DNA from: an uncultured Candidatus Saccharibacteria bacterium
GTDB taxonomy: Bacteria > Patescibacteriota > Minisyncoccia > Phycocordibacterales > XYD1-FULL-46-19
NCBI GenBank assembly: GCA_964355855.1
Contig: CAYHFD010000002.1
Location: 419 to 64,418, forward strand
DNA length: 64,000 bases
Direction: 5' to 3'
Shown: in pieces, positions 1 through 54,926 of the stretch
How the letters are laid out: each line of letters opens with the position of its first letter
Position numbering within the stretch: position 1 is the stretch's first letter
Notes under the pieces: generated by a model
Database searches by the model: none
What the model was told of the DNA's origin: nothing
What the model saw: only the letters and a program-made list of their open reading frames with translations
Translations under genes and position numbers: made by a program

Positions 1-317
1 GGCGAGGATGATGAAGTTGAGGTTGTGTTCTTCAAACCTGACCTCTCGAACCGCAATGGTTTCATCTCCGATGACGACCTCGAAAAGGAGTTTGAGTTGC
101 GTGGTCTCAAGCCGGTCGATCCGTATTCTTTGGCGGCCGTCAACGAAGCCGATCCGGCTTTCGCGGACGATAAGCCACACGGCACCCACTGGAAGGACGA
201 GAATGGCCAGTGGTGTTGCGCCACGTTCCGCCGGTGGAGCGGCGGGCGGCACGTGAGTGTCGACCGCTACGCCTTGTCTGGGGCGGCAATTGGTGGTTCG
301 CTGGCCGGCGCAAGTAG
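1..317 (+). CDS. DGR target protein paralog A (5'-partial; C-terminal VR1). The frame matching paralog B ends at TAG 315-317; relative to TR and VR2 there is a 1-nt deletion that shifts the listed ORF on to 534.
   Basis: From nt 1 the translation GEDDEVEVVFF...DPYSLAAVNEADPAFADDKPHGTHWKDENGQWCCATFRRWSGGR is collinear with and ~70% identical to the downstream gene 681-1310. It shares the 3' block ggttcgctggccggcgcaagtag with VR2 and TR, but in a +1 frame relative to the upstream part. Confidence 0.6.
212..313 (+). repeat. DGR variable repeat VR1
   Basis: Aligns to TR (1654-1756). About 14 differences fall at TR adenines, with one silent C/T difference and a 1-nt indel near the 3' end. The 3' IMH-like block is identical to TR and VR2. 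Confidence 0.75.
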
Positions 318-422
318 ATTTTGGGCTTTGGCCGCTGGGTCCTTTTTGGACCCTTTGGCCTTAGCCTTTGGGCCCCTGCATTTCGGTGCGGGGGCCTTTT
401 TCTTTTGGTTGAAAAAAGCACA

Positions 423-467
423 AGCACTCTTTCTCCACGAGGTTGAACCTCGTGGAGAAAGAGTGCT
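423..467. repeat. Perfect 45-nt palindrome (20-bp arms, loop TTGAA) ~105 nt downstream of VR1. The core CACGAGGTTGAACCTCGTG recurs at 16774-16792.
   Basis: agcactctttctccacgagg ttgaa cctcgtggagaaagagtgct, checked base by base; the second occurrence lies just after the yafQ-like stop. Confidence 0.8.
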
Positions 468-559
468 ACAAATAAACCAGTTCGCCCATCGATCCCTGTG
501 GCCAAGCTGGCCGGGTATTCTCGCCACTCAATAAGGTTATCTTGAGGCAGTTACAAAAT

Positions 560-588
560 TTGACAAAATAGCCGACAGGGTGTATAAT
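560..588 (+). promoter_or_regulatory. Sigma70-like promoter TTGACA-17-TATAAT with RBS AAGGAGG (666-672) for target gene B
   Basis: ttgaca at 560-565, 17-nt spacer, tataat at 583-588, then aaggagg 8 nt before ATG 681. Confidence 0.55.
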
Positions 589-680
589 TAAAATAGATTG
601 AAAATTGGCCTAAGTAAGGTAGTGATCCATTTTTGCTGTCCTAACTGAAGCCGCCATAACCAAGAAAGGAGGATGACGCC

Positions 681-1310
681 ATGGAAAAGACCATGACCCC
701 ATCCGCAGATTCCGCATCAGACACGAAGACGACGACAGCGGGCCAAATCACCAAAGCCGTCGCCAACTATCGGGCACTTCTGGAGAAGTACGCCGAAGAA
801 TTCCCTGCTGAGGCTGTGCAAACAGTTCTCGGCCAGTCCGAACTTGCCAGTGAGCAATTCGCAGTTTTGCGCCGGCGCATCGAAGTGGTCAGCAATATGA
901 TTGTTCGTCGCGTTAAGGTCAACCGCACCCGCAAGCCCCAAGAGGTTCTGGACGCCACCGGCCGGAAGCAGTACACCAACCGCGCGGTCGTGGACGGTAT
1001 GTCCCAAGGCGAAGGTGACGAAGCTGAAGTCGTTTTCTTCAATCTCGGCCGTTACGTGACCGATACCGAGTTGGAAAAAGAATACGAAATGCGCGGTCTT
1101 GTGCCCGCTGATCCGTATTCTTTGGCCGCCGTGAACGAAGCTGACCCGGCTTTTGCCGATGAAAAGCCGAACGGCACCCACTGGCAAGATTCCGACGGCC
1201 AGTGGTGCTGCGCCGCGTTCTACCGGTGGGACGGCGGGCGGTACGTGGGTGTCCGCCGCAACGTCAATGACTGGGACGACCATTGGTGGTTCGCTGGCCG
1301 GCGCAAGTAG
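681..1310 (+). CDS. DGR target protein paralog B (209 aa) with C-terminal variable repeat VR2
   Basis: Intact ORF with strong promoter and RBS. The C-terminus ...GTHWQDSDGQWCCAAFYRWDGGRYVGVRRNVNDWDDHWWFAGRRK overlaps VR2. Its N-terminal domain has no recognised function and no signal peptide. Confidence 0.8.
   Translation: MEKTMTPSADSASDTKTTTAGQITKAVANYRALLEKYAEEFPAEAVQTVLGQSELASEQFAVLRRRIEVVSNMIVRRVKVNRTRKPQEVLDATGRKQYTNRAVVDGMSQGEGDEAEVVFFNLGRYVTDTELEKEYEMRGLVPADPYSLAAVNEADPAFADEKPNGTHWQDSDGQWCCAAFYRWDGGRYVGVRRNVNDWDDHWWFAGRRK
1204..1306 (+). repeat. DGR variable repeat VR2
   Basis: 103-nt alignment to TR with 16 mismatches, every one at a TR adenine (A to G, T or C); the last 26 nt are identical to TR (IMH-like). 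Confidence 0.85.
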
Positions 1311-1653
1311 CTCTTAGCGCTAAGTCTCTCTGGACTTCGGTCCTTAGAAACTTAGCCCTTAGCCCTGTTTTGATTTGCCATCAAGGTAAATCGGAGCGGG
1401 GCTAAATTTTTGCATAAAATAATATATAATGCTCCCGGTAGTAGGTGAATAGCGATGAGGTTACGGCTTCTCGCTACCGAACCCAGTATCCATGCACCCC
1501 GAGTATCCACGGTCACGGCTGTGGGTAGAGTGGTGTATGCAGACACTTCAAAAAATGAAGCTACTTGGTATAGAGTTTTAAGGCATTGTGATGCCGGATT
1601 CGATACAGCCCCGAGAGTATTCGAGGGGTAGTGAAATAGACGAGACTCTATAC

Positions 1654-1756
1654 AATGCTACGCCACGTTCAACCGGTGGAACGACGAGCGGAACGTGAAT
1701 GTCAACCGCAACGACAATGACTGGAACGACAATTGGTGGTTCGCTGGCCGGCGCAA
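1654..1756 (+). repeat. DGR template repeat (TR), non-coding and adenine/AAC-rich
   Basis: This copy of the VR region has no upstream gene body. In the VR frame it reads NRWNDERNVNVNRNDNDWNDNWWFAGRR (AAC codons at the variable sites). The sequence diverges from the VRs right after gcgcaa (VR: gtag; TR: ctcac), i.e. an IMH/IMH*-type boundary. Confidence 0.85.
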
Positions 1757-1762
1757 CTCACT

Positions 1763-2092
1763 TCATTTTTCTCCCAATTTTGTGTTGGGAGAGTTTTGTT
1801 TTAATATCTGCCCACTCCAGCCGCCAAGCATTTTGCCGATTTCTTCAAGTGGCAAGGACAGGGCGATATATTTTTTATTGTCCAAAGACTTGGTTTCCCA
1901 CAAAATCATTAAAAGAACTTTGGCGGTATCCACTTTTCGAATGGCTAATCGGACCCACGGCTGTTTTTCGTCTTTGGCTAGAAAACTCGCGGCAGCAATG
2001 GCTTCGATTGCCTCAATAAACAGCGTGTCTATTTTCTGGCCAAGTGAGTAGCGGTGGGTTTTGGGTAAAATCTGGTGGTAGCTGGACCACAA
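1763..2092 (-). CDS. avd: Four-helix-bundle protein, Avd-like accessory variability determinant, antisense between TR and RT
   Basis: 109-aa ORF ...LPKTHRYSLGQKIDTLFIEAIEAIAAAS...LPLEEIGKMLGGW, resembling the four-helix-bundle family (TIGR02436-like) used as DGR Avd. It is on the opposite strand to TR and RT. Confidence 0.6.
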   Translation of the reverse strand: MWSSYHQILPKTHRYSLGQKIDTLFIEAIEAIAAASFLAKDEKQPWVRLAIRKVDTAKVLLMILWETKSLDNKKYIALSLPLEEIGKMLGGWSGQILKQNSPNTKLGEK

Positions 2093-2175
2093 AATATAGA
2101 CGGCTTTTAGTCGCTCAAGAAGCGGTAGGAGCTTTGGTTGTGAAAAGGTGCGGGGGGGGTACTATTCGAAGCGTT

Positions 2176-3216
2176 ATGCCCAAAATCCAGTTTACTCATA
2201 GTTATGAAGATATTATTTCACTTGATAATCTGCTTTCAGCGTGGCCAGAGTTTAGCACTGGCAAGCGGAAACGAAAAGATGTGCAGGAATTTGCGCGAAA
2301 CTTGATGACGAATATTATTTCTTTGCACTCTGATTTAGCTGCCAAAACCTACCAACATTCTGCCTATGAGGCTTTTAATATTGCCGATCCGAAGCCGCGG
2401 AACATTCACAAAGCCAGTGTCCGCGACCGCCTGTTGCACCATGCTTTATACCGGAAACTTTACCCATTCTTTGACCGCACCTTCATTGCTGATTCATTTT
2501 CCTGCCGGCGTCGGAAAGGAACACATAAGGCGGTGAAGAGGTTTGAGAGACTGGCGAGAAAGGCGAGTCAGAATAATACCAAGACGCTCTGGGTCTTGAA
2601 ATGCGATATTCGCAAGTTTTTCGCCTCGATTGAGCAGACAATATTGCTGGATATCGTAAATGGTTATATTCCCGACAAAAACATTGTTTGGTTGATTGGA
2701 AAAATTGTATTAAGCTTTCACTCGACCGCCCCAGGCAAAGGCCTACCTCTCGGCAACCTCACTTCCCAACTGTTAGTGAATATTTATATGAACGAATTTG
2801 ACCAGTTTGTGAAGCATAAACTCAAAGTGAAATATTATATCCGGTATGCCGATGATTTTGTTGTTATGTCTACCGATAAAAAGTGGCTAGAAGAAATATT
2901 GTTGGAGATTAGGGGATTTTTGGAAGAAAAACTTAAGCTGAAACTTCATCCAGACAAAGTGTTTATCAAAACTATCGCCTCGGGTGTGGATTTCTTGGGT
3001 TGGGTCCATTTTCCCGACCATCGCGTTTTGCGGACGATGACCAAAAGGCGGATGTTTAGAAATATTAAAGAGAAAGAGGGGAAGGTGGAGACTGTCCAGT
3101 CGTACTTGGGGTTGTTGCGACATGGCAATGGGTGGAAACTCCAGCGAGAGATTTTTGTTTCTTTGAAAAAAGAGTACTCCGGCCCGCGCGCCGTAGGCGC
3201 GGGGGATTTGCTATAA
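2176..3216 (+). CDS. DGR-type reverse transcriptase
   Basis: Contains YADDFVV (RT motif 5) and LPLGNLTSQLLVNIY, which matches the [ILV]GxxxSQ DGR signature rather than the group II QGxxxSP. The N-terminus has the FEAY.../KRKRKDV... pattern typical of DGR RTs. No group II domain V/VI RNA lies downstream. ATG 2176 was chosen inside the longer ORF 2044-3216. Confidence 0.85.
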   Translation: MPKIQFTHSYEDIISLDNLLSAWPEFSTGKRKRKDVQEFARNLMTNIISLHSDLAAKTYQHSAYEAFNIADPKPRNIHKASVRDRLLHHALYRKLYPFFDRTFIADSFSCRRRKGTHKAVKRFERLARKASQNNTKTLWVLKCDIRKFFASIEQTILLDIVNGYIPDKNIVWLIGKIVLSFHSTAPGKGLPLGNLTSQLLVNIYMNEFDQFVKHKLKVKYYIRYADDFVVMSTDKKWLEEILLEIRGFLEEKLKLKLHPDKVFIKTIASGVDFLGWVHFPDHRVLRTMTKRRMFRNIKEKEGKVETVQSYLGLLRHGNGWKLQREIFVSLKKEYSGPRAVGAGDLL

Positions 3217-5880: not shown

Positions 5881-6336
5881 TTGGGTTTCTGCTGCTTTTG
5901 CTTGGAACTTTGCGTTTTTACCAAACTAAGTTTAGCTAGTTTGTGGGCGCTACTTACTTGGGGTCTATTACATATGGCTGGCGGTAGTATTCCAGTGGGT
6001 GATACTGTTTTGTATGGTTATAAAATATTTCCGTTTATTGATAAAGGTGGCGAGTTTTACATTTTAAAATTTGATCAAGTGGTGCATGCTTTTGGTTTTG
6101 CAGTGGCGACTTTGGTGATGTATGAAATAATCCGTCCGCGCTGGCGGGGAAGCCGAGGACTTTTGTCTTTCGTGGCGTTTTTGGGCGGGATGGGCCTAGG
6201 AGCGCTTAATGAAATCGTCGAGTTTGTGGCAGTGTTAGTTTTTCCGGCGACCGGGGTGGGTGGGTATTTTAACACCGGTCTGGATTTGGTGTTTAATCCA
6301 AGCCCAGAATTCCCCGTCAGTTTACGGCGGGGATAA
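5881..6336 (+). CDS. Hypothetical membrane protein (start uncertain, possibly the internal Met near 5977)
   Basis: Multi-TM ORF immediately upstream of repeat copy A. Confidence 0.35.
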   Translation: MGFCCFCLELCVFTKLSLASLWALLTWGLLHMAGGSIPVGDTVLYGYKIFPFIDKGGEFYILKFDQVVHAFGFAVATLVMYEIIRPRWRGSRGLLSFVAFLGGMGLGALNEIVEFVAVLVFPATGVGGYFNTGLDLVFNPSPEFPVSLRRG

Positions 6337-6482
6337 ATGGGCGAGGAAAGGGGGTCGGGGAAAACGGAGTTTTCCCCGTGGCGGAGAGCAGCGAAGCGTT
6401 GAGAACCGAGGGGTTCTCAAAATAAATCTCTCCTCGCTTAATACCACGCTAGCTTGGCTACGGGGATAGGACGAGAGAAATT
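6293..6482 (+). repeat. Copy A of a ~200-bp structured repeat family (MITE-like or ncRNA)
   Basis: ttaatccaagcccagaattccccgtcagtttacggcgggg...gagaaccgaggggttctc...ggctacggggataggacgag; the same element occurs at 8705-8900 and 46688-46890. Confidence 0.8.
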
Positions 6483-7321
6483 TATGATTGTAGCAATTTT
6501 TTATAGAGTTCTACTATTAATTTGTCGTCATTATCGTGATCAAAAGCGGAAAAACCGGGCTGGGTATTTAGTTCAAACAAGACAAATTTACCATTGGTGG
6601 TTTCGGCCACATCAAGACCCGCTAGACCTATTTTTAACTTGGAAAAAACAGGAGAAAGAAAGGACGCAAGTTCGCCCAAGCGGTGCTGGTCTGTGACCAG
6701 CACCGCTTGGGCGTTTTCGTAGTGGAGGGGACTAAGGTTGCCGGTAAAGACCGCTCTAGAAATATCTTTCTCATAGGCAAATTTGATTTGATTATTTAAA
6801 ACAACTACGCGGTATTCGGTTTTTATTAGTACAAATTCTTGGGCCAAAGCAACATAGTCATAATTTTTAGATTTTTTATTGTAAATTTTCTTAAGAGCCC
6901 GGCGAATATCATTTATACTTTCACATTTAAAAACATTTCTACCCTGACTACCATTATTCATTTTTATAATTACCGGAAGTTCAAACTTGTGACTGATATC
7001 AATAGCGATGTCTTCTTGAGAATGAAAATTTTTATACTGATCAAATTCAGCCAGGGCGTCCGGATCAAAATACCCAATAGTCCGAGGCATATTTATGTGG
7101 GAAGAAAGAAAAAGATAAGTAAATTCTTTGTCTTCGGCTAGTCGAACCAAGTCCGACTGATTGGCGGGACTAGTGCAATTAATAAAAGTTTTGGGTCCGT
7201 ATGGGGTTTTAACTTCAATAAAATTTTTATTTTTATCAAAAAAGCTGTAAGAAAAACCCAGCGCCATGGCCGCCTTTTCGACACAAGCGATATTTAAGCA
7301 TTGGGTAGGTTGTACATCCAT
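6482..7321 (-). CDS. ATP-grasp domain protein (RimK/glutathione-synthetase-like ligase)
   Basis: 279-aa protein with an ATP-grasp-like central region (..KMNNGSQGRNVF.. and ..VLFELNTQPGF..). Confidence 0.5.
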   Translation of the reverse strand: MDVQPTQCLNIACVEKAAMALGFSYSFFDKNKNFIEVKTPYGPKTFINCTSPANQSDLVRLAEDKEFTYLFLSSHINMPRTIGYFDPDALAEFDQYKNFHSQEDIAIDISHKFELPVIIKMNNGSQGRNVFKCESINDIRRALKKIYNKKSKNYDYVALAQEFVLIKTEYRVVVLNNQIKFAYEKDISRAVFTGNLSPLHYENAQAVLVTDQHRLGELASFLSPVFSKLKIGLAGLDVAETTNGKFVLFELNTQPGFSAFDHDNDDKLIVELYKKLLQS

Positions 7322-8641: not shown

Positions 8642-8652
8642 AGCTGGCAGTA

Positions 8653-8693
8653 AGGGGTGGTGGGGCTTTTAAACCCCGCCACCCCTTTTCATT
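8653..8693 (+). terminator. Rho-independent terminator
   Basis: ggggtggtggggc ttttaaa ccccgccacccc followed by TTTT. Confidence 0.75.
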
Positions 8694-8704
8694 TTTATAT
8701 TTTT

Positions 8705-8900
8705 TAATCTAAGCCCAGAATTCCCCGTCAGTTTACTGCGGGGATGAATGGGCGAGGAAAGGGGGTCGGGGAAAACGGAGTTTTCCCCGTGGAGGAGAGC
8801 AGTGAAACGTTGAGAACCGAGGGGTTCTCAAAATAAATTTCTCCTCGCCTAATACCCCGTTAGCTTTTGCTATAGGGATAGGATGAGGAGGGTTTATTTA
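8705..8900 (+). repeat. Copy B of the ~200-bp structured repeat
   Basis: Collinear with copies A and C, with point differences (loop cgg to ctg; ttctcctcgcc arm). Confidence 0.8.
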
Positions 8901-23377: not shown

Positions 23378-23974
23378 ATGGCTCATCGGCATTATCATAC
23401 CCAAGGTTTTATTTTAAATGAACGCCCCTTGCGGGAGAAGGACATCTTGATATCGGTTTTTACTTTGGATTTAGGTCTAGTAAGAGCCACTATAAAGTCG
23501 GCGCGAGATATTAGATCTAAACTTCGCCCACACGCCAGTCGTTACGGCTATGTCAGTATTACTCTGGTTCGTGGGCGGGAATTTTGGAAAGTAGTCGGCC
23601 TTGAAACCATCAGTATTTATCAGCCAATTTGGAGTTGTCAGGATTTGGCTTTACCGACAGCCCGGATTTTTGCCTTGTTAGAGCGGTTGGTTAACGGTGA
23701 AGAATCTGCCCCTAGACTTTTTGCTGATGTGGCTGAAGGTATAAATCTTATGGCCATCTTACCGTTGGTCGAGCGTAGTCAGCATGCTAAAAATCTAGAA
23801 TGTTTAGTGGTTTTGCGTGTGCTTCACCATTTGGGTTATTTACCTAGTTTACCCTTACTTCAGCCTTTTATTGCTGAATCCAGACTTGATTTGGCCTTGG
23901 TCCAGTCTATGTCGCCAATTCGGTTGGAGGCGATTCAAACTATCAATCGAGCCTTCAACGACGCTAATGTTTAA
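23378..23974 (+). CDS. recO: DNA repair protein RecO
   Basis: N-terminal OB-fold pattern HTQGFILNERPLREKDILISVFT. Confidence 0.6.
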   Translation: MAHRHYHTQGFILNERPLREKDILISVFTLDLGLVRATIKSARDIRSKLRPHASRYGYVSITLVRGREFWKVVGLETISIYQPIWSCQDLALPTARIFALLERLVNGEESAPRLFADVAEGINLMAILPLVERSQHAKNLECLVVLRVLHHLGYLPSLPLLQPFIAESRLDLALVQSMSPIRLEAIQTINRAFNDANV

Positions 23975-24051
23975 TCAAACTGCAGAATTTTCCGTTAGCT
24001 TCCTGTAAGGATAGGATGAGCAGGTTTTAGCTTATGTGATATAATTTTCCT

Positions 24052-41917: not shown

Positions 41918-42955
41918 ATGAAAATTAAAGGTGCGGTTGATAAAGACCTTCTGGTTTTTTTAGCAGTATTTTTCGGCCTTGGTTTGTTGTGGATAATGTT
42001 GGGTTGGCCGGGCCAAGAAGATGCTAATTCCCCCGTGGTTCGTTTTAATGCTGACGAGACTGATTCATCTAGGGACGGTAATAGTGAAAATAGTCGATCG
42101 GCCACCGGGCGTTCGGCTCGCGCTGAACGACTACTAAAAGCCGAATCACCTCAAGTAGTTATTGATGGTTATACCTATACCAAATCTCCTTGGTATAAGT
42201 TGGTGATTATTGGTCGGGGAACAGCTAAATCGGCCGATGAAGCCCGTAAAGAATATATCGAATTAAGGGCCGATTCTCACAATGAACAGCCAATAAATAT
42301 TGGTAATTGGAAACTGGAAAATGGGCGCAACCGCCGACCGGTGCAAATTTCTAGTTTTAAAGAAAAAACTTTATCGGCCGTGCGGGTGAACATTCCTTTG
42401 GCTACCAATTTATTTGTTGGTCTTAAATCAAAACTACAACCGGTAGTTTTAGGCCCCGGTGACCGCGCTTATATTATTACTGGCTCTTTGCGAACCGGTG
42501 GTGACTTGCCGGTGCGGGTGAGTTTTCGTACCAACAAATGTATTGGCTATTTGGCCGACAATGAGAGAAATTCGTTTATTCCTAGCTTAAAAAAAGATTG
42601 TCCCCGGCCCGGTGATGAACCAGGCGTTGAAAATCTAACCGATAGTTGTTACGACTTTGTTCGTCGTCTGCCGACTTGTCATATTCCCGATGATAAACCA
42701 TTTCGTGATCGAGACGGTGATTTGGTACGTAACCATTTAGACGGCAATGTGGAGTTGTCGAAAATTTGCCGTGATTGGGTCAAAGTCCGATTTAGTTACG
42801 AGGCTTGCGTGTCACGACATATTACTGATGAAGATTTTTATGGCACGGAGTGGCGGGTCTATTTGAATCGCGATTGGGAATTGTGGAACGACCGCCGAGA
42901 AGTTATTACTTTGTACGACGACCAAGGTTTATTGGTTGATCAAATATCATATTAA
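41918..42955 (+). CDS. Membrane-anchored protein with a lamin-tail-like domain
   Basis: N-terminal TM helix; INIGNWKLENGRNRR...VVLGPGDRAYIITG resembles the LTD pattern. Confidence 0.4.
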   Translation: MKIKGAVDKDLLVFLAVFFGLGLLWIMLGWPGQEDANSPVVRFNADETDSSRDGNSENSRSATGRSARAERLLKAESPQVVIDGYTYTKSPWYKLVIIGRGTAKSADEARKEYIELRADSHNEQPINIGNWKLENGRNRRPVQISSFKEKTLSAVRVNIPLATNLFVGLKSKLQPVVLGPGDRAYIITGSLRTGGDLPVRVSFRTNKCIGYLADNERNSFIPSLKKDCPRPGDEPGVENLTDSCYDFVRRLPTCHIPDDKPFRDRDGDLVRNHLDGNVELSKICRDWVKVRFSYEACVSRHITDEDFYGTEWRVYLNRDWELWNDRREVITLYDDQGLLVDQISY

Positions 42956-43671
42956 CAAGGACCGTCCTTGGAAAAAAATATTTGTGTTATAATTTGAACA
43001 TGCAGAGGAAAGAGGTTTTTGCCCAAGGAGAGTATTATCATATTTATAATCGCGGTGTAGATAAAAGAAAAATATTTCTCGATGATTTTGACTACAGTCG
43101 TTTTATGAGAATGATGTACGTCTGTAATTCTAATCAGGCAGTTATTTTTAAAGATATAGCGGACATTCCATATCAAGAAATTATACGCGGAGACAGGCTG
43201 GTAGATTTGGGGGCATATTGTCTGATGCCAAATCATTTTCATTTTTTAATTAAAGAAAGGGCAGAAGGGGGAATATCAATGTTTATGAAAAAACTTTTTA
43301 CTGGCTATTCTATGTTTTTTAATAAAAAATATAATAGGTCTGGGGCATTATTTCAGGGAAGGTTCAGGGCCGAACATGCCTTTGACGACAAATATTTAAA
43401 TTATCTTTTTTCATACATTCATCTTAATCCGATCCGCAAGTCTATTCCAGAAGGTAAAATTGATGAACTAAAATTAGTCCTAGAGATGTTTGATTATTCT
43501 AGCTATAAGGATTATTGTAAGAAGGAACGGGAAGAATCTTGTATAATAAACAAGGAAGAGTTTCCCGATTATTTTCAATCAGCAATAGATTTTCGTGATT
43601 TTATTAATGATTGGTTGGTATATGAAGAATATTATACCACAAATTAAATTTTCCAAGGACGGTCCTTGGAA
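42954..43671 (+). mobile_element. REPtron-like compact element: HUH (Y1) transposase gene flanked by inverted copies of a 20-nt palindromic repeat
   Basis: The left end caaggaccgtccttggaaaa (42956-42975) equals the reverse complement of the right end ttttccaaggacggtccttgg (43648-43669), and each end is itself palindromic. The left end directly abuts the stop codon of the upstream gene. Confidence 0.7.
42982..43647 (+). CDS. REP-associated tyrosine transposase (RAYT) / IS200-like HUH transposase
   Basis: YHIYNRG, the HUH motif LMPNHFHFLI, GALFQGRF, and the catalytic Tyr region YIHLNPIRK. Confidence 0.75.
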   Translation: MCYNLNMQRKEVFAQGEYYHIYNRGVDKRKIFLDDFDYSRFMRMMYVCNSNQAVIFKDIADIPYQEIIRGDRLVDLGAYCLMPNHFHFLIKERAEGGISMFMKKLFTGYSMFFNKKYNRSGALFQGRFRAEHAFDDKYLNYLFSYIHLNPIRKSIPEGKIDELKLVLEMFDYSSYKDYCKKEREESCIINKEEFPDYFQSAIDFRDFINDWLVYEEYYTTN

Positions 43672-46670: not shown

Positions 46671-46687
46671 CCTGTGCTATATTCCTT

Positions 46688-46890
46688 TTAATCCAAGCCC
46701 ATTCATCCCCGTCAGTTTACGACGGGGATGAATGGGCGAGGAAAGGGGGTCAGGGAAAACACTTGTTTTCCCTGGGGCGGAGAGTAGTGAGCGAAGCGAG
46801 CGTTGAGAACCGAGCGGTTCTCAAAATAAATCTCTTCTCGCTTAATACCCCGTTGGCTTGGCTACGGGGATAGGACGAGGAGGATTTATT
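46688..46890 (+). repeat. Copy C of the ~200-bp structured repeat (with a 9-15-nt internal duplication)
   Basis: Collinear with copies A and B. The hairpin gggaaaac/gttttccc carries compensatory changes relative to ggggaaaac/gttttcccc in the other copies. Confidence 0.8.
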
Positions 46891-47157
46891 ACTAAATAGA
46901 CCAAAACAGGATGGATCCCGTTAGAGATCGCGCCTGCCTGCCGGTAGGAAGAGACACTAAATTTAATTTCACCATGAAAACCAAAATTATCAACAGACTA
47001 AGTTATGGTACCGGCGGGGACAAACAGTCCGTGTTCTACCTGCCCGCCAAAGCCAGAGCACTACAAGTGATATTTACAATGAATATGGTTGATTTATTAA
47101 TTAATAACCTAGTCCACTGTTGGCGCTTTAGGCGATGGCAGGCGGGCCTCTAACGGG

Positions 47158-47754
47158 ATGGAAATTCTAGAAAAATTGTTTGATAGTAAGCACCGGGTAA
47201 AGCTTTTGCGTCTCTTCCTCTTTAATCCTGAAGTAGCTTTTGATCGGGTCGAGATTATTCGACGGAGCAAGGTTTTGTCATCGGCTTTGCGCCGCGAGCT
47301 CTCACTTTTGTCGGGAGTGGGAATTATAAAACTTAAAAAAGTCCAACTGGTAAGCAAAAGTGAACGACGCAAAAGCGTTCAGGGTTGGGAACTTAATCCC
47401 ACTTTCCCTTTAATTCAAAGTCTTCGTGGTTTACTAAATACGGATTTTTTACGCCGTAAAACGGATATTGTAAAACGGTTCCGCAATTGTGGTCGGGTAA
47501 AACTTTTAGTAGTGTCGGGTATTTTTATTAATGACGAAGACCGCCGGCTTGATATTTTACTGGTGGGGGATAATTTGAAAAAAAATATTATTGAAAAAAA
47601 TGTTCGAGCAATTGAAGCGGAAGTTGGTCGAGAGCTTAATTATGCCACGCTTGATACGGAAGACTTTCTCTACCGGGCAGGGACTAGTGATCGGTTTATC
47701 CGTGATGTTTTTGACTATCCCCATGAACGGATGATTGATAAACTTACTTTTTAA
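47158..47754 (+). CDS. Hypothetical protein (possible N-terminal HTH); start uncertain because ATG 47158 lies inside an upstream inverted repeat
   Basis: 198-aa ORF with no clear motif. Confidence 0.35.
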   Translation: MEILEKLFDSKHRVKLLRLFLFNPEVAFDRVEIIRRSKVLSSALRRELSLLSGVGIIKLKKVQLVSKSERRKSVQGWELNPTFPLIQSLRGLLNTDFLRRKTDIVKRFRNCGRVKLLVVSGIFINDEDRRLDILLVGDNLKKNIIEKNVRAIEAEVGRELNYATLDTEDFLYRAGTSDRFIRDVFDYPHERMIDKLTF

Positions 47755-48685: not shown

Positions 48686-49524
48686 TTCGTATATAATAGG
48701 CGATGTCAGATATGTTAAATAAAATAAACCATAAAACCAGGCGTAAGAAGTAGCGTGTATTTAGACTGTGCTACATTCTGCCGCCCGGAGGGCGGTTTAT
48801 TTTTTCAGAAAGGCTGGAACATTGAAAATTGAATCCTGTCACGGTATCGACTTTTCCGCCTATAGGATAGGCGGAAGGGGTCTTTTCAAATATCGGAGGC
48901 AGAATAGGTAGAAACATTGTGTTTTGAAAGTAAAGTTAGATAGCAATCAAAAAAGAAAGTGGTTTTTAAATTTCCTAATAGGAAATTAAGAGTATATGGT
49001 GGATGCCTTGACACAAAATGGCGATGAAGGACGCGGCTTGGCGGCGATACGCTTCGGGGAGGTGCCTAGCAACCTTTGATCCGGAGATGTCCGAATGGGG
49101 AAACCCGATTGAGCAAAGCTCAATTACTCGTTTTTTTACGAGAGCTAACCCAGGGAAGTGAAACATCTCAGTACCTGGAGGAATAGAGACTAAATGAACT
49201 TCCTAGTTTGGAGGTAAGTAGCGCAAGCTCCGTGCTTCCAAACTATGAGGTTCTTAGCATTCCCTTAGTAGCGGCGAGCGAACAGGGAGAAGCCCAAACC
49301 CATAAGTTTACTTGTGGGGGTTGTAAGGCACGAACGTAGATTTCTAGGGAAGTCAAAAAATATTTTGTTAGCCGAAGCTGCTGGGAAGCAGCGCCACAGA
49401 AGGTAACGGCCCTGTAGGCGAAAATAAAATATCTTCCTTGTTCGTGTTCTTGAGTACCTCGAGGAACGACAGCCTTGAGGGAATCCGCCGGAACTAACCG
49501 GCAAGGCTAAATACATTTTGTGAT

Positions 49525-49561
<37 letters not shown>

Positions 49562-51247
49562 CAGCCCGATAAGGGCGTTGAAATAGACCTGAAACCATAT
49601 ACTTACAAGGAGTGGGAGCCGAGCACTACAGTGTGCATTATTTTGTGAGTTGAAAAATGATTTGACCGAGCCGTCGATGAAATTGCCGCCCAAGGCGTGG
49701 CGATTTGCAAAGGGTTGAGTCACCAGGGATGAACCATAACTGTCGACGTTATCTCATCCCATCATTTTTCAGTTCACAATTTAAATTGTGCATAGTGTAG
49801 TGCTCGGTGACCGCGTGCCTATTGAAGAATGAGCCAACGAGTTTATGCGTACTGCAGGCTAAGCCCTTCTGGGGTGGAGCCACAGGGAAACCAAGTGTGA
49901 ATAGCGCATTTGTAGTCCGCATAAGACCCGAAGCCAGGTGAGCTTGCCATGGGCAGGATGAACCCCACAGAAATGTGGGGGGAGGTCCGAACCGGTTAGC
50001 CGTGCAATACTATCGGATGACCTGTGGTAGGGAGTGAAAAGCTAATCGAACCTGGTAATAGCTGGTTCTCTCCGAAATATCTTTAGGGGTAGCGTCAGAT
50101 GTTCCTTCTGGGGGTAGAGCACTGGAAGAGTCGAACAGGGAGAAATCTCGTCGATTCTATCAAACTCCGAATACCAGAAACTAAAAGTCTGGCAGTTAGA
50201 CTCCGGGCGCTAAGGTCCGGTGGTCGAAAGGGAAACAGCCCTGATCTCAATCTAAGGTCCCTAAATTCATGCTAAGTGCACTTAAGGAGGTGAAATTTCT
50301 CCGACAATGAGGAGGTTGGCTTAGAAGCAGCCATCCTTTAAAGAAAGCGTAATAGCTCACTCATTCAGAGATCTTGCGCCGCAAATAATCGGGGCTAAGC
50401 ATGGTACCGAAGGTGAGGATGTCATCTATTTTCGAATAGGTGGCGTGGTAGGAGAGCGTTCCAATCCGCGGTGAAGCAGTGTCGTGAGGCACTGTGGAGC
50501 GTTTGGAAGTGAGAATGTTGGCACAAGTAACCGCAAGGCAGGTGAGATCCCTGCCCGCCGAAAGATCAAGGTTTCCTTGGCAATGGTGATCAGCCAAGGG
50601 TTAGTCGGGCCTAAGCCGATGGTGAAAACCGCAGGCGATGGACACACGGTTAATATTCCGTGACTTCTGTAATGTGCGATGGGGAGACGGAGTGCAGTAT
50701 GTCAAGCGTATTATTGGATTTATGTTCGGGCCGTTAGGAAGTACTCTAGGTAAATCCGGAGTACATTATTCCAAGCGGAGCGAAAACGCGGTGGTCTCCA
50801 CCGTGAATTTGACAAAGCGCGCTTCCAAGAAAAGCCTCTAAGCTTCAACATTATAGAAACCGTACCGCAAACCGACACAGGTGATCAGGTCGAGAAGACC
50901 AAGGCGAACGGGTGATTGCTCCTCAAGGAACTCGGCAAAAAAGCGGCCGTAAGTTTGCAATAAGGCCTTCCTAACCCCGCGCAAGCGGGACGGACGCAGC
51001 TAAAGAATCCCTGGCGACTGTTTATCAAAAACACAGCTCCCTGCGAACTCGTAAGAGTATGTATAGGGGGTGACACCTGACCAATGCCCGAAGGTCAAAT
51101 AAGGTGGGTGTGCGCATCACACTGCGTGTGATACTGATATATCGATATATCAAAATTTCGAAATATCAGCATCGTGCTTGGCGTGATGCGTATGCTTGCT
51201 CTATAAGCCCGGGTGAATGTCGGCGATAACTATAATCGTCCTAAGGT

Positions 51248-51509
51248 TCCGTGTTCGATTTTAAAATCGAACACGGAACGGATTGGGGCGATGTATAGCG
51301 AGTGTGATAAACAGAAGACAAAATATACCAATCAAAAGCTACCTCAGCGCGCGGTAACGCGTGCATGATCCACATGGCACGAAGAGACTATACGCCATGC
51401 TCCCTAAAACATTTGCTTTGCAAATGTTCGGGCGAACATTTTGTTTACAAAATGTTTTAGCCAGCAAAAATTAGGGATGAAGATATAGTCCTTATGTGAG
51501 GAATATAAG
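51248..51509 (+). other. Intron-like insertion 1 in the 23S (262 nt, no ORF) at E. coli position L1931 in helix 69
   Basis: Flanks reconstitute CCTAAGGT|AGCGAAATTCC. The 5' exon ends in U, the insert ends in G, and the insert has internal palindromes. Confidence 0.6.
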
Positions 51510-52110
51510 AGCGAAATTCCTTGTCTGGTAAGTTCAGACGTGCACGAATGGTGTAACGACTGGGGAACTGTCTCGAGGAGTAGCCCGGTGAAAATGCAAT
51601 GGGGGTGAAGATGCCCTCTACCTGCAGCTAGACGAAAAGACCCCAGGAGCTTTACTGCAGCTTGATATTGAGCTTACGTTTTTACTGCGTAGCATAGGTG
51701 GGAGACTTTGAAGCGTCGCTTTCGGGTGATGTGGAGTCAACAGTGAAATACCACTCTGTAAAAATGTATGTTCTAACCACGGTGTAAACCATCGTGAGAC
51801 AGTATCTGGTAGGTAGTTTTAGTGGGGCGCTATCCTCCTAAAAAGTAACGGAGGAGTCTATTAAGGTCCTCTAGGCGCGAATGGAAACCGTGCCGATAGT
51901 GTAATGGCATAAGAGGGCTTGACTGCAAGACGTACATGTCAAGCAGATGCGAAAGCAGAGCATAGTGAACCGACGGTCCGCCTTAGAAACGGCCGAAGAT
52001 CAACGGATAAAAGCTACCCTGGGGATAACAGGCTGGTACCGCCCAAGCGTCCATAGCGACGGCGGTGTTCGGCACCTCGATGTCGGCTCATCTTATCCTG
52101 GGGCTGGAGA

Positions 52111-52143
<33 letters not shown>

Positions 52144-52183
52144 AAGATACGCGAGCTGGGTTCAAACCGTACTGAGACTAATT

Positions 52184-52743
52184 TTAAAAAATTGGTAGAA
52201 GTGCAGTTTGAATCCCTTCGAGTTTTTCGTTTATGAAATTAAGTATAGGAACCCCGCCGGCGCGTAAAGCTATGGCGGGTGAGACAACCATAATCACGGC
52301 GGCGTAATGTAGCAATATATTACGAAATGCTGACTTATATCGGTGAAACCCTATTTGACGCGGAAATATGCGGAACTAACGCAGACAAATGCGGAAAAGG
52401 GCAATACCGAGGGAAATCGTGAACTTTATTGAGGAAATTGATCTTTTTTTTGGGGTAGTGTAGTGGGCACATTTCTGGGTTTAATCCCAAGTAAGCTAAT
52501 GACAATCGGGCCTAAAATAGTTTAGATCTTTCAAGGTCTAAGCCGTACGGAAACCGTCACGTTGGCAAGCGAAAAAGAGCGAGTTCAACTTTCGCACCCC
52601 TTATGTTTTTGAAGCAATCGAGATGATTGCTTCTTCAATAAAGTTCACGATACCCGTAGAGACTGAACGTTAGCCAACCGGGCACATGAGAGTACCGGTT
52701 GAAGATACAGTCCGATGCACTTAGTAATAAGTGAAAACATGCG
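52184..52743 (+). other. Intron-like insertion 2 in the 23S (560 nt, no ORF) in the peptidyl-transferase region, at the I-CreI/I-CeuI-type homing site (~E. coli 2593-2597)
   Basis: Flanks reconstitute ...CCGTAC T|GAGACAGGTTGGTCTCCTATC. The 5' exon ends in U and the insert ends in G. Confidence 0.6.
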
Positions 52744-53882: not shown

Positions 53883-54926
53883 ATGCAAAAAATTAAAAGA
53901 CGAGACTACAAGCGAGAATTCAACCAACTCACACTCGATGATCGCATCAGGATCGAGATCAAGTATCGGGAAGGCTTGAGCTTTAGAGATATTGCTACGC
54001 ATCTCGGTCAAGGTCGAACGGCCGGATCAATCTGTAGAGAAGTCGATGGAAGACCCAGGAAAGGAGTCGGGAAATACTAGGCTCACGCGAGTCACGCGAA
54101 AGCACTTGAGAGAAGGTTTGGAAAGAAAGATTTTCGGCTGAAGAACAATCTCATCCGCTCGTATGTACAAGAAAAGATGAAGATTGGCTGGTCTCCCGAA
54201 CAAGTTTCAATTCGTCTCCCGATTGATCATCCCGGCAATGACATATCGTATGAAGCCATATACCAATTTGTGTATGCTCAAATTGATCGGTACAACAGCG
54301 GAAAGGCAAAAGAGGGTTGTGAGGATTTGAGACCATACCTACCTCGCAGACATACAAGGAGGCAGACAAAGGGCTTCAGACAGGCACGAAAGATGTATCT
54401 GCCGGCACTACCTTCAATTGAAAACAGACCAGCCATCGTAGACAAAAGAACACGCATTGGTGACTGGGAAGATGATACTATGGTTTCAAGACAAAGCCCT
54501 GATCGATTGAAGACCATCAATGAACGAGTCTCTGGTATTGTGCTCATTGGAAAGATGAGAGAAGGAACTATATCTGAATCCAACAGAGTGGTACATGAAA
54601 GGCTTGGTAAAATACCAAAGGAAATCAGGAGGACTCTCACACGAGATCGAGGTATGGAAAATCTTGGCTACCAAGAGATTGAAAAAGAATTGAATATCTC
54701 TTGCTACTTTGCCAGAGCGTATTGCTCACAAGACCGAGGATCAAACGAGAATGTGAATGGTCTCATACGACGATTCTTTCCAAAGAAAACAGACTTTAGA
54801 AAGGTATCTGATGAGGAGATTAACCGAGCCGAATTTCTTCTGAACTCCAGGCCGAGGAAAAGACATCGTGGAAAAACTCCACTTGAAGTATTATTAGAGC
54901 GTACTGGTGTTGCAATTACTTATTGA
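53883..54926 (+). pseudogene. IS30-family DDE transposase interrupted by a single in-frame TAG (54078-54080), listed as ORFs 53883-54080 and 54177-54926
   Basis: N-terminal HTH LTLDDRIRIEIKYREGLSFRDIATHLG. The catalytic region has GDWEDDTM, DRGMEN, SQDRGSNENVNGLIRRFFPK and NSRPRK. The two ORFs are in the same frame, and the 96 nt between them are open. Confidence 0.7.

Follow-up and report, generated by a model that had tools for sequence, protein, structure and literature searches.

A structured repeat of about 190–210 nucleotides (nt) recurs three times in a 64,000-nt stretch of DNA from an uncultured Candidatus Saccharibacteria bacterium (GenBank contig CAYHFD010000002.1, positions 419 to 64,418). 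This whole stretch is called the window hereafter, and results stated for the window apply to these 64 kb. Three full copies, all on the + strand, were recovered by a hidden Markov model (HMM) search (E ~1e-74 to 1e-77), and a covariance model run with filters off returned the identical three, again on the + strand, with scores of 175–191 bits. With boundaries refined on 45–97 relatives, copy A spans positions 6292-6485 (194 nt; 180 bits), copy B positions 8703-8898 (196 nt; 191 bits), and copy C positions 46687-46890 (204 nt; 175 bits). The original prediction, made from the letters of the window, had placed three copies in the same orientation at coordinates that are right within a few bases.

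The three copies occupy different kinds of sites. A truncated DUF2238 gene has its 3' end inside copy A. Copy B is located between the terminator hairpin of a small open reading frame (ORF; hairpin at 8652-8687) and a convergent malic-enzyme gene, whose stop codon (8904) is 5 nt away. Copy C follows the rplL terminator and lies just downstream of a promoter-like sequence, TGCTATATT, in the leader of gene 47158-47754. The copies had been described as near-identical, which overstates their likeness: pairwise identity is 84–89% on model columns. In the three-way alignment, mean column identity is 88%, and similarity vanishes outside the unit. Copies A, B, and C are roughly one another's nearest relatives in the family. 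Their divergence, together with the compensatory changes described below, indicates that they are not recent insertions, though their helices are intact.

Anatomy of the element

The unit is sharply delimited. In boundary profiles of 45 copies, conservation begins abruptly at the 5' edge with TTTAAT (6292-6297 in copy A) and ends at the 3' edge with TTTATT. Hairpins H1, H2, Hv, H3, and H4 follow one another between these edges. H1 (6302-6342, + strand, in copy A) consists of a covarying lower stem, a conserved internal loop in which AGAAU stands opposite AUGAAU (AUAAAU in copy A), and an upper hairpin (CCCCG-n-CAG...CGGGG in copy A); the internal loop is sometimes fully paired, as in copy C, whose H1 is perfectly paired. 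After H1 comes a first junction, GAGGAAAGGGGGUC, and then H2 (6356-6378 in copy A), formed by GGGGAAAAC-loop-GUUUUCCCC and separated from Hv by a second junction, GUGGAGGAGAGCA. Hv is variable. It ranges from a bare GCGAAGC in copies A and B (6391-6397 in copy A), a mini-hairpin known to be exceptionally stable in DNA and RNA alike, up to long inserts, the longer forms often having a conserved tandem G.A/A.G beside the closing G-C. Copy C carries a long form, and what had been read there as an internal duplication is the common family state of Hv, of which copies A and B have the short form. H3 (6399-6420 in copy A) is composed of GUU and then UUGAGAACC-GAGN-GGUUCUCAA, with an A-rich run, AAAAUAAA, coming next. 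Finally, H4 (6421-6485 in copy A, with terminal TTTAT) exists in the family in a short and a long form.

The upper hairpins of H1 and H4 are one and the same bulged module of ~30 nt, AAUwCCCCG-n-CAGC-UUG-GCUG-CGGGGAU, repeated in direct orientation; in copy A its recurrence in H4 lies at 6441-6466 (+ strand). The two direct modules flank a highly conserved, purine-rich core carrying H2, Hv, and H3. They are located 120 nt apart, with ~110 nt of conserved core between them. In copy A, the core proper (6343-6428, + strand) reads GAGGAAAGGGGGUC, H2, GUGGCGGAGAGCA, Hv, GUU, H3 (UUGAGAACC GAGG GGUUCUCAA), and AAAUAAAU, and it corresponds to the most sequence-conserved region of the family. The hairpin module resembles type I-E CRISPR repeats, but a CRISPR-like unit was rejected, there being no arrays and no regular spacing. 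An integron attC site was likewise rejected, as no R''/R' core sites are present.

Two derivatives in the window consist of parts of this architecture. A mini copy of 60 nt (23970-24029, + strand; HMM E 0.004) retains the two ends of the unit, 5' (TTTAATCAAACTGCAGAATT) and 3' (GGATAGGATGAGCAGGTTTTA), joined through a single hybrid hairpin, and lacks the core entirely, which is what recombination between the direct hairpin modules would be expected to produce. A right-end-like fragment (~471-530, - strand; HMM E 0.0047) harbors the H4 module and TTTATT, with no core upstream. Expanded forms also exist. In some relatives, a multi-hairpin block of ~85 nt (UGAGAAGCGAA...CCUGUAAGG) sits inside H2, as in loci L095 (4870-4960, - strand), L053, L077, and L108 (4780-4900). 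The same block stands alone in L077 at ~1770-1870, beside an H1-like hairpin; it represents either an optional domain of the RNA or a small nested element.

Loop differences of 1–2 nt and the variable Hv break any reading frame, and the unit is therefore non-coding. A small protein was ruled out on this ground, since the loop and Hv lengths differ by non-multiples of three, and the 'ORFs' across the element are merely its own translation. Inside the element, H3 and the A-rich run resemble a sigma-70 promoter (TTGAGA, 18 nt, TAAATT, the last being TAAAAT in the family) that points out through H4; the match lies at 8810-8839 in copy B and at the equivalent place in copies A and C. Pairing seems a likelier role for this stretch than that of an internal promoter, because in variants TAAA becomes TGAA jointly with a change in the pairing partner.

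Conservation of the fold

All three full copies fold far better than dinucleotide-shuffled sequences (z -5.0 for A and -9.95 for C), and the predicted fold is a row of hairpins. The three hairpins first proposed for the repeat are real. In a structure-blind MAFFT alignment of 45 diverse copies, 91.9% of cells form standard pairs, and both sides change in 33 of 56 pairs, against 14.5 +/- 2.4 in shuffles (0 of 500 reach 33) and 7–17 pairs when partners are slid. The model-based alignment of 97 copies gives 94.3% of cells paired and both-side changes in 36 of 47 pairs, compared with 17.9 +/- 2.3 in shuffles and 13–20 with slid partners. All variable helices contribute: both parts of H1 (lower and upper), H2, Hv through its outer pairs, and H4 with its base as well as its lower and upper parts. 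No change occurs in H3, but as it served as the search anchor, this invariance is uninformative either way. As judged from these alignments, the fold is maintained by compensatory change, and the original view of a conserved structure rather than a decaying repeat holds for the 45- and the 97-sequence alignment alike.

Individual cases illustrate this. The compensatory change noticed at the outset in copy C (CAGGGAAAAC/GTTTTCCCTG) is genuine and replaces a G-C pair of H2 by A-U. The terminal TTTAT pairs with AUAAA located 5' of the H4 hairpin, and TTCAT variants come with AUGAA; the U-rich tail of H4 thus itself pairs and covaries with AAUAAA. In a mutual-information scan, the annotated pairs rank top, and neither pseudoknots nor extra long-range helices beyond the annotated ones were detected. 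A long-range pairing between GGGCGAGGAA and TCTCCTCGC had also been proposed. It can form 10 bp in the window copies, but it does not covary in the family, and its 3' segment forms H4: among 23 long-form relatives, complementarity within sequences scored 5.96 versus 5.79 between sequences (392 of 2000 permutations as high), whereas the local lower stem of H4 scored 8.04 within versus 5.45 between (0 of 2000 as high).

The paired cells contain more G-U/U-G than A-C/C-A combinations (81:46 and 123:67). This mild excess is a moderate sign that the + strand is the one that folds, be it as RNA or as single-stranded DNA. Covariation extends to H2 and Hv, neither of which is needed for end recognition, which argues for a functional fold, most simply of an RNA. 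Outside the helices, alignment columns 385 and 478 (6383 and 6411 in copy A) vary jointly. They correspond to a position in GUGG[A/C]GGAG and to the fourth base of the H3 loop, A going with A or U and C going with G. Such joint variation could reflect a tertiary contact or shared ancestry.

One reading of this fold is that each copy is a stand-alone gene, independently transcribed into a small RNA (sRNA) of ~190 nt that ends at H4 and acts in trans. Single-stranded parts rich in GGAGGAG could serve it for binding, for example, to the ribosome or to a protein, and the copies would have spread by duplication or recombination rather than by dedicated transposition. This reading is possible, if on the unlikely side. 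It agrees with the covariation of all five helices, with a core that is highly conserved over divergent lineages, with the G-U excess on the + strand, and with the age of the window copies, which are structurally intact at 84–89% identity; moreover, H4 and UUUAUU are akin to an intrinsic terminator at a 3' end, and H2 and Hv accept optional expansion domains, as in many structured RNAs. It is harder to reconcile with the left side of the element, where TTTAAT is the sole conserved sequence and a conserved promoter is lacking; as read here, this hexamer has no A at -11, and a sigma-70 scan called no promoter at any copy's 5' edge. The element begins and ends as sharply as an inserted unit would, both ends share the hairpin module, and the bursts of >=95% identical copies, the broken assemblies, the truncated gene, and the solo or mini forms fit mobile DNA. 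A CsrA-type sponge made of GGA motifs was ruled out, as the GGA of the H2 loop is not conserved.

Distribution of the family

Relatives were searched with a pattern consisting of an exact match to the most conserved stretch, namely H3 and the A-rich run that follows it. Among species-representative genomes, it matched seven loci in four metagenome-assembled genomes (MAGs) of Patescibacteria. In metagenome contigs, 102 stretches matched, many of them from Hainich groundwater and many located at contig ends, while viral contigs, phage records, and plasmid records gave zero matches. In all, 81 distinct full-length copies were extracted, and the model alignment takes in 98 matches, 97 of them distinct, so that the family has at least 97 distinct relatives. 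Every relative found sits in a Patescibacteria MAG or a groundwater metagenome. One subfamily, from a population other than that of the window, comprises 14 copies that are >=95% identical, each with different flanks.

When the window was compared with Rfam 15 at the gathering threshold, solely the 23S and 5S rRNAs passed, which leaves the element without a family, and relaxed scans of copy C and of one long variant returned chance hairpin matches only. The searchable literature, queried by topic and by core sequence, contains no description of such an element in Patescibacteria. The element is a previously undescribed, protein-less family of ~190–210 nt.

Genomic setting

The context of 75 copies could be classified: 28 lie between convergent genes, 22 between tandem genes in co-orientation, 13 between tandem genes in anti-orientation, and 12 between divergent genes. 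There is thus a preference for gene 3' ends, and the orientation bias in these 75 contexts is not significant. No replication-linked orientation bias was detectable. A riboswitch or 5' leader was ruled out, since the downstream gene is often on the opposite strand and no gene class recurs. A terminator-like hairpin is found within 75 nt upstream of 12 of 78 copies versus downstream of 3 of 78. The copies had been said to lie always after terminators. This is correct for copies B and C, which follow a terminator-like hairpin, but not for copy A, nor for the family at large, and with 12 of 78 copies the case for a targeting of terminators is weak.

The 3' end of the element itself resembles a terminator. 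H4 is framed by AAAAUAAA and UUUAUUUU, which allows a terminator-like reading in both directions: the hairpin is followed by UUUAUU on the + strand and by UUUAUUUU on the - strand. A consensus terminator scan made no call at this place. These features lead to another explanation, in which the element is a cis-acting intergenic module of the ERIC/BOX/REP type that, after spreading, would be retained for its hairpins, these terminating or insulating transcription and stabilizing the 3' ends of neighboring mRNAs. The structure would then work inside the transcripts of the neighbors and not as a separate RNA. The over-representation of convergent regions (28 of 75), the greater frequency of terminator-like hairpins on the upstream side (12 versus 3 of 78), an H4 stem that reads as a terminator from both sides, and the location of copy B 5 nt from a convergent stop codon are all compatible with it. 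However, one hairpin suffices for a terminator, so that the conserved purine-rich core with its three more covarying hairpins, common to distant lineages, is left unexplained. Furthermore, 12 copies lie between divergent genes, copy C is in a 5' leader where a terminator would do harm, and most copies come after no terminator. We consider this module quite unlikely as the explanation of the element. Both the sRNA and the terminator/insulator readings are compatible with mobility, and both are live.

Mobility of the element

The nearest named relatives of the Hainich groundwater population to which the window belongs are Candidatus Vogelbacteria. In Vogelbacteria relatives, the genes follow one another as DUF2238 - DHH - small ORF - malic enzyme - SecE - NusG - L11, and the sites of copies A and B are element-free (the neighboring DHH protein being 66–68% identical). 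In L116, the site orthologous to that of copy B is empty. DUF2238 is full length in the Vogelbacteria relatives (197–200 aa). In the window, by contrast, the DUF2238 ORF (5881-6336) is truncated: ~60 C-terminal codons have been lost, and the last 13 codons and the stop are supplied by copy A. An ATP-grasp (RimK-like) gene (6482-7321, - strand) is inserted between copy A and DHH compared with Vogelbacteria, and copy A is located exactly at the DUF2238/ATP-grasp rearrangement junction (5881-7321).

The site of copy C was found empty by model search in L123 and L124, two relatives that are 87% and 80% identical in the protein of the downstream gene. The spacer between rplL and the next gene measures 110 nt in the 87% relative and 116 nt in the 80% relative versus 546 nt in the window, where it contains copy C and an unrelated element of 243 nt. 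In the more distant genome L108, rplJ and rplL are separated by a standard copy, and rplL is followed by a divergent long variant. In addition, contigs from the window's own population, encoding the window's proteins, break exactly at element copies.

Fixation at orthologous sites, which the original prediction had named as evidence that would speak against mobility, was not observed, since the closest relatives lack the element at all three orthologous sites. The copies occupy non-orthologous intergenic sites, and some lineages have amplified them recently. The empty orthologous sites, the different position at rplJ-rplL, and the 14 near-identical copies indicate that the element behaves as mobile or duplicative; the burst copies, the assembly breaks, the gene truncation, and the solo and mini derivatives are typical of mobile DNA.

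It had been suggested that the repeat is similar to a miniature inverted-repeat transposable element (MITE). The mobile or duplicative behavior agrees with this suggestion, but the ends do not, so that the element is not a classical MITE: no terminal inverted repeats (TIRs) were found beyond 4 chance bases, and no target-site duplications (TSDs), either in ~10 near-identical copies with different flanks or in the profiles of 45 copies. An origin as a classical MITE derived from an insertion sequence with a DDE transposase, or as a neutral decaying repeat, is highly improbable. The element is indeed short, non-coding, multi-copy, and intergenic, and the true MITE with TIRs and a TSD that adjoins copy C shows MITEs to be active in this genome. 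Nevertheless, the lack of TIRs and of target duplications in the ~10 near-identical copies is at odds with the first of these origins, and neutral decay is excluded by the compensatory changes seen in all variable helices. An element of the IS110 bridge-RNA type was ruled out as well, because the flanks have no common target of 11–14 nt.

The MITE next to copy C (46916-47158, 243 nt) is unrelated to the structured repeat. It has perfect 11-bp TIRs (TCCCGTTAGAG / CTCTAACGGGA) and a TGGA duplication, and its insertion point is the start codon of gene 47158, whose ATG it rebuilds. It is common to the window and to L125 (a 79% relative) and absent from L123 and L124.

Proposed mechanism

Overall, the repeat is probably a small mobile element with a functional RNA or single-strand structure. 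More specifically, we give about an even chance to its being a non-autonomous mobile element of Patescibacteria, hairpin-ended and with a structurally selected core. The traits that recall IS200/IS605 elements are the sharp ends, one bulged hairpin near both ends on the same strand, the T-rich edge motifs, and the mini derivative. For the mechanism and the function of the core, we infer the following. The element would move as a single strand by means of its two direct subterminal hairpins, in the 'peel-and-paste' style of IS200/IS605, with a transposase encoded elsewhere in the genome and acting in trans. What keeps the core would be the cooperation of the element's transcript, or of its top strand in folded form, with a protein encoded in trans, as in PATEs that bear omega RNAs. 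H4, with its A-tract/U-tract base, might double as a two-way terminator-like hairpin that shields neighboring genes. The proposed relation to IS200/IS605 is one of analogy ('works like') and would not imply membership.

The only transposase-like gene found repeatedly near the element is Y1_Tnp (RAYT-like, IS200-like), which is present in the window, L047, L106, and L108. In the window, it is located at 42982-43647 (42955-43669 with flanks; Pfam Y1_Tnp) and is flanked by a 17-nt palindrome in the form of an inverted pair (ACAAGGACCGTCCTTGG, CCAAGGACGGTCCTTGG) that occurs in two copies only in the window.

Several observations weigh against the proposal of a hairpin-ended element moved in trans. 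The palindromes of the window Y1_Tnp gene are unrelated to the H1/H4 hairpins, the homologous genes of L106 and L047 are likewise bordered by different hairpins of their own, and within the 64-kb window no Y1 (HUH) TnpA was found whose own element has matching ends. TnpB/IscB-like genes are absent from the ten window ORFs scanned against Pfam, and none was noticed near the ~110 loci among the ORFs inspected by eye, a survey made without a Pfam scan of these loci. Similarly, no neighboring protein family is enriched in the ~110 loci, the neighbors inspected by eye being housekeeping-like (aminoacyl-tRNA synthetases, FtsH, transporters), and the orientation of the copies shows no bias relative to the overall gene direction of their loci, with 18 copies in the same direction, 15 in the opposite one, and 14 mixed cases. 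The omega-RNA families in Rfam do not match the element, and the terminator-like appearance of H4 and UUUAUU argues against a 3' guide read out of it. With respect to insertion itself, no filled/empty polymorphism was seen within one population: among the fetched loci, and likewise among contigs encoding identical flanking proteins, all contigs found either carry the element or break there. The empty sites of relatives have TTTAA strings similar to the TTTAAT conserved at the 5' edge. TTTAAT may be either a target motif or a part of the element, no occupied/empty allele pair being close enough to place the junction. Finally, the window copies are old, and what preserves them may be a host function instead of mobility.

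A bolder version of the hairpin-ended element goes one step further. In it, the H2-Hv-H3 core would represent a novel kind of functional RNA carried by a transposon, guide-like or catalytic, acting with an as yet unrecognized trans-encoded protein or alone, and riding a gene-less, hairpin-ended, single-strand transposon in the reduced genomes of Patescibacteria. We regard this version as unlikely.

The tiny genomes of Patescibacteria are generally regarded as containing little mobile DNA. If the proposal is true, these bacteria would nonetheless host an abundant, structurally selected, gene-less mobile element whose fold has been kept across distant lineages. It would provide a new RNA motif with at least 97 sequences and five covarying helices, as well as a test case for hairpin-ended transposons acted on in trans. 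There are also practical consequences, as metagenome assemblies of these organisms break at every element copy and genes of the window have been remodeled, DUF2238 being truncated and the leader of gene 47158 occupied.

Other features of the window

A diversity-generating retroelement occupies positions 1-3216. It comprises a reverse transcriptase (2044-3216, RVT_1), a template-like repeat (~1656-1765), and two variable repeats (213-322 and 1206-1315) at the 3' ends of paralogous genes, with the repeat differences located at template adenines. Reverse transcriptase homologues adjoin the structured repeat in L053 and L048. The 23S rRNA match (48976-52358) extends over 3383 nt versus 2925 positions of the model, which corresponds to an insertion of ~450 nt, probably an intron. 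No tRNA genes were found in the window, and no 16S rRNA match was reported there. Directly after the 5S rRNA, the ORF at 54177-54926 has an N-terminus that looks IS30-transposase-like by eye, with no Pfam match at E 0.01.

Comparison with known systems

Among gene-less mobile elements, classical MITEs, such as the Correia element or the one at 46916-47158 in the window, share with the structured repeat the size class, the non-coding state, and insertion polymorphism between relatives. They differ from it in having TIRs and a TSD. The nearest parallels are the PATEs. These are gene-less IS200/IS605 derivatives that 'often encode omega RNAs' and are acted on in trans (PMC10055086). IS200/IS605 elements carry subterminal palindromes on the top strand, and TTTAT and TTCAT are flanking motifs of the Geobacillus (ISGst) elements (PMC10055086). 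As in PATEs, the structured repeat is short and protein-less, with neither TIRs nor a TSD. Its subterminal imperfect hairpins are similar at both ends and lie on the same strand (the upper parts of H1 and H4, both of which covary), and its left flank and right end present T-rich penta- or hexanucleotides like the TTTAT/TTCAT of ISGst. Its internal part is structured and RNA-like, and factors would be required in trans. By contrast, neither the surroundings of the ~110 loci, inspected by eye, nor the 64-kb window showed a cognate TnpA, TnpB, or IscB, the core fits no known omega-RNA model, and the terminator-like 3' hairpin is ill-suited to a 3' guide. A further difference concerns IS608, whose right end makes a 4-nt guide contact, whereas the right-end motif of the structured repeat is buried in a stem of 6–8 bp.

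The REP and REPIN sequences are likewise hairpin-based and intergenic, and the window does encode a RAYT-like Y1_Tnp with inverted palindromes. However, REPs are palindromes of 20–40 nt and REPINs are inverted pairs of them, whereas the hairpins described here are direct, and the window RAYT palindrome (CCAAGGACGGTCCTTGG) is unrelated to them. Finally, the ERIC and BOX elements of enterobacteria and pneumococci are non-coding, multi-copy intergenic repeats of 100–200 nt with a stable fold, the mobilizing agent of which is unknown. The structured repeat resembles them in its size, in its non-coding, multi-copy, intergenic state, in its stable fold, and in its conservation beyond one species, and its variants also gain extra blocks at fixed internal positions. 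It is found in another phylum and has no sequence relation to them. Instead of one long imperfect palindrome, it is built of two direct hairpin modules placed around a three-hairpin core, and the covariation evidence for its fold is much stronger than is usual for those repeats.

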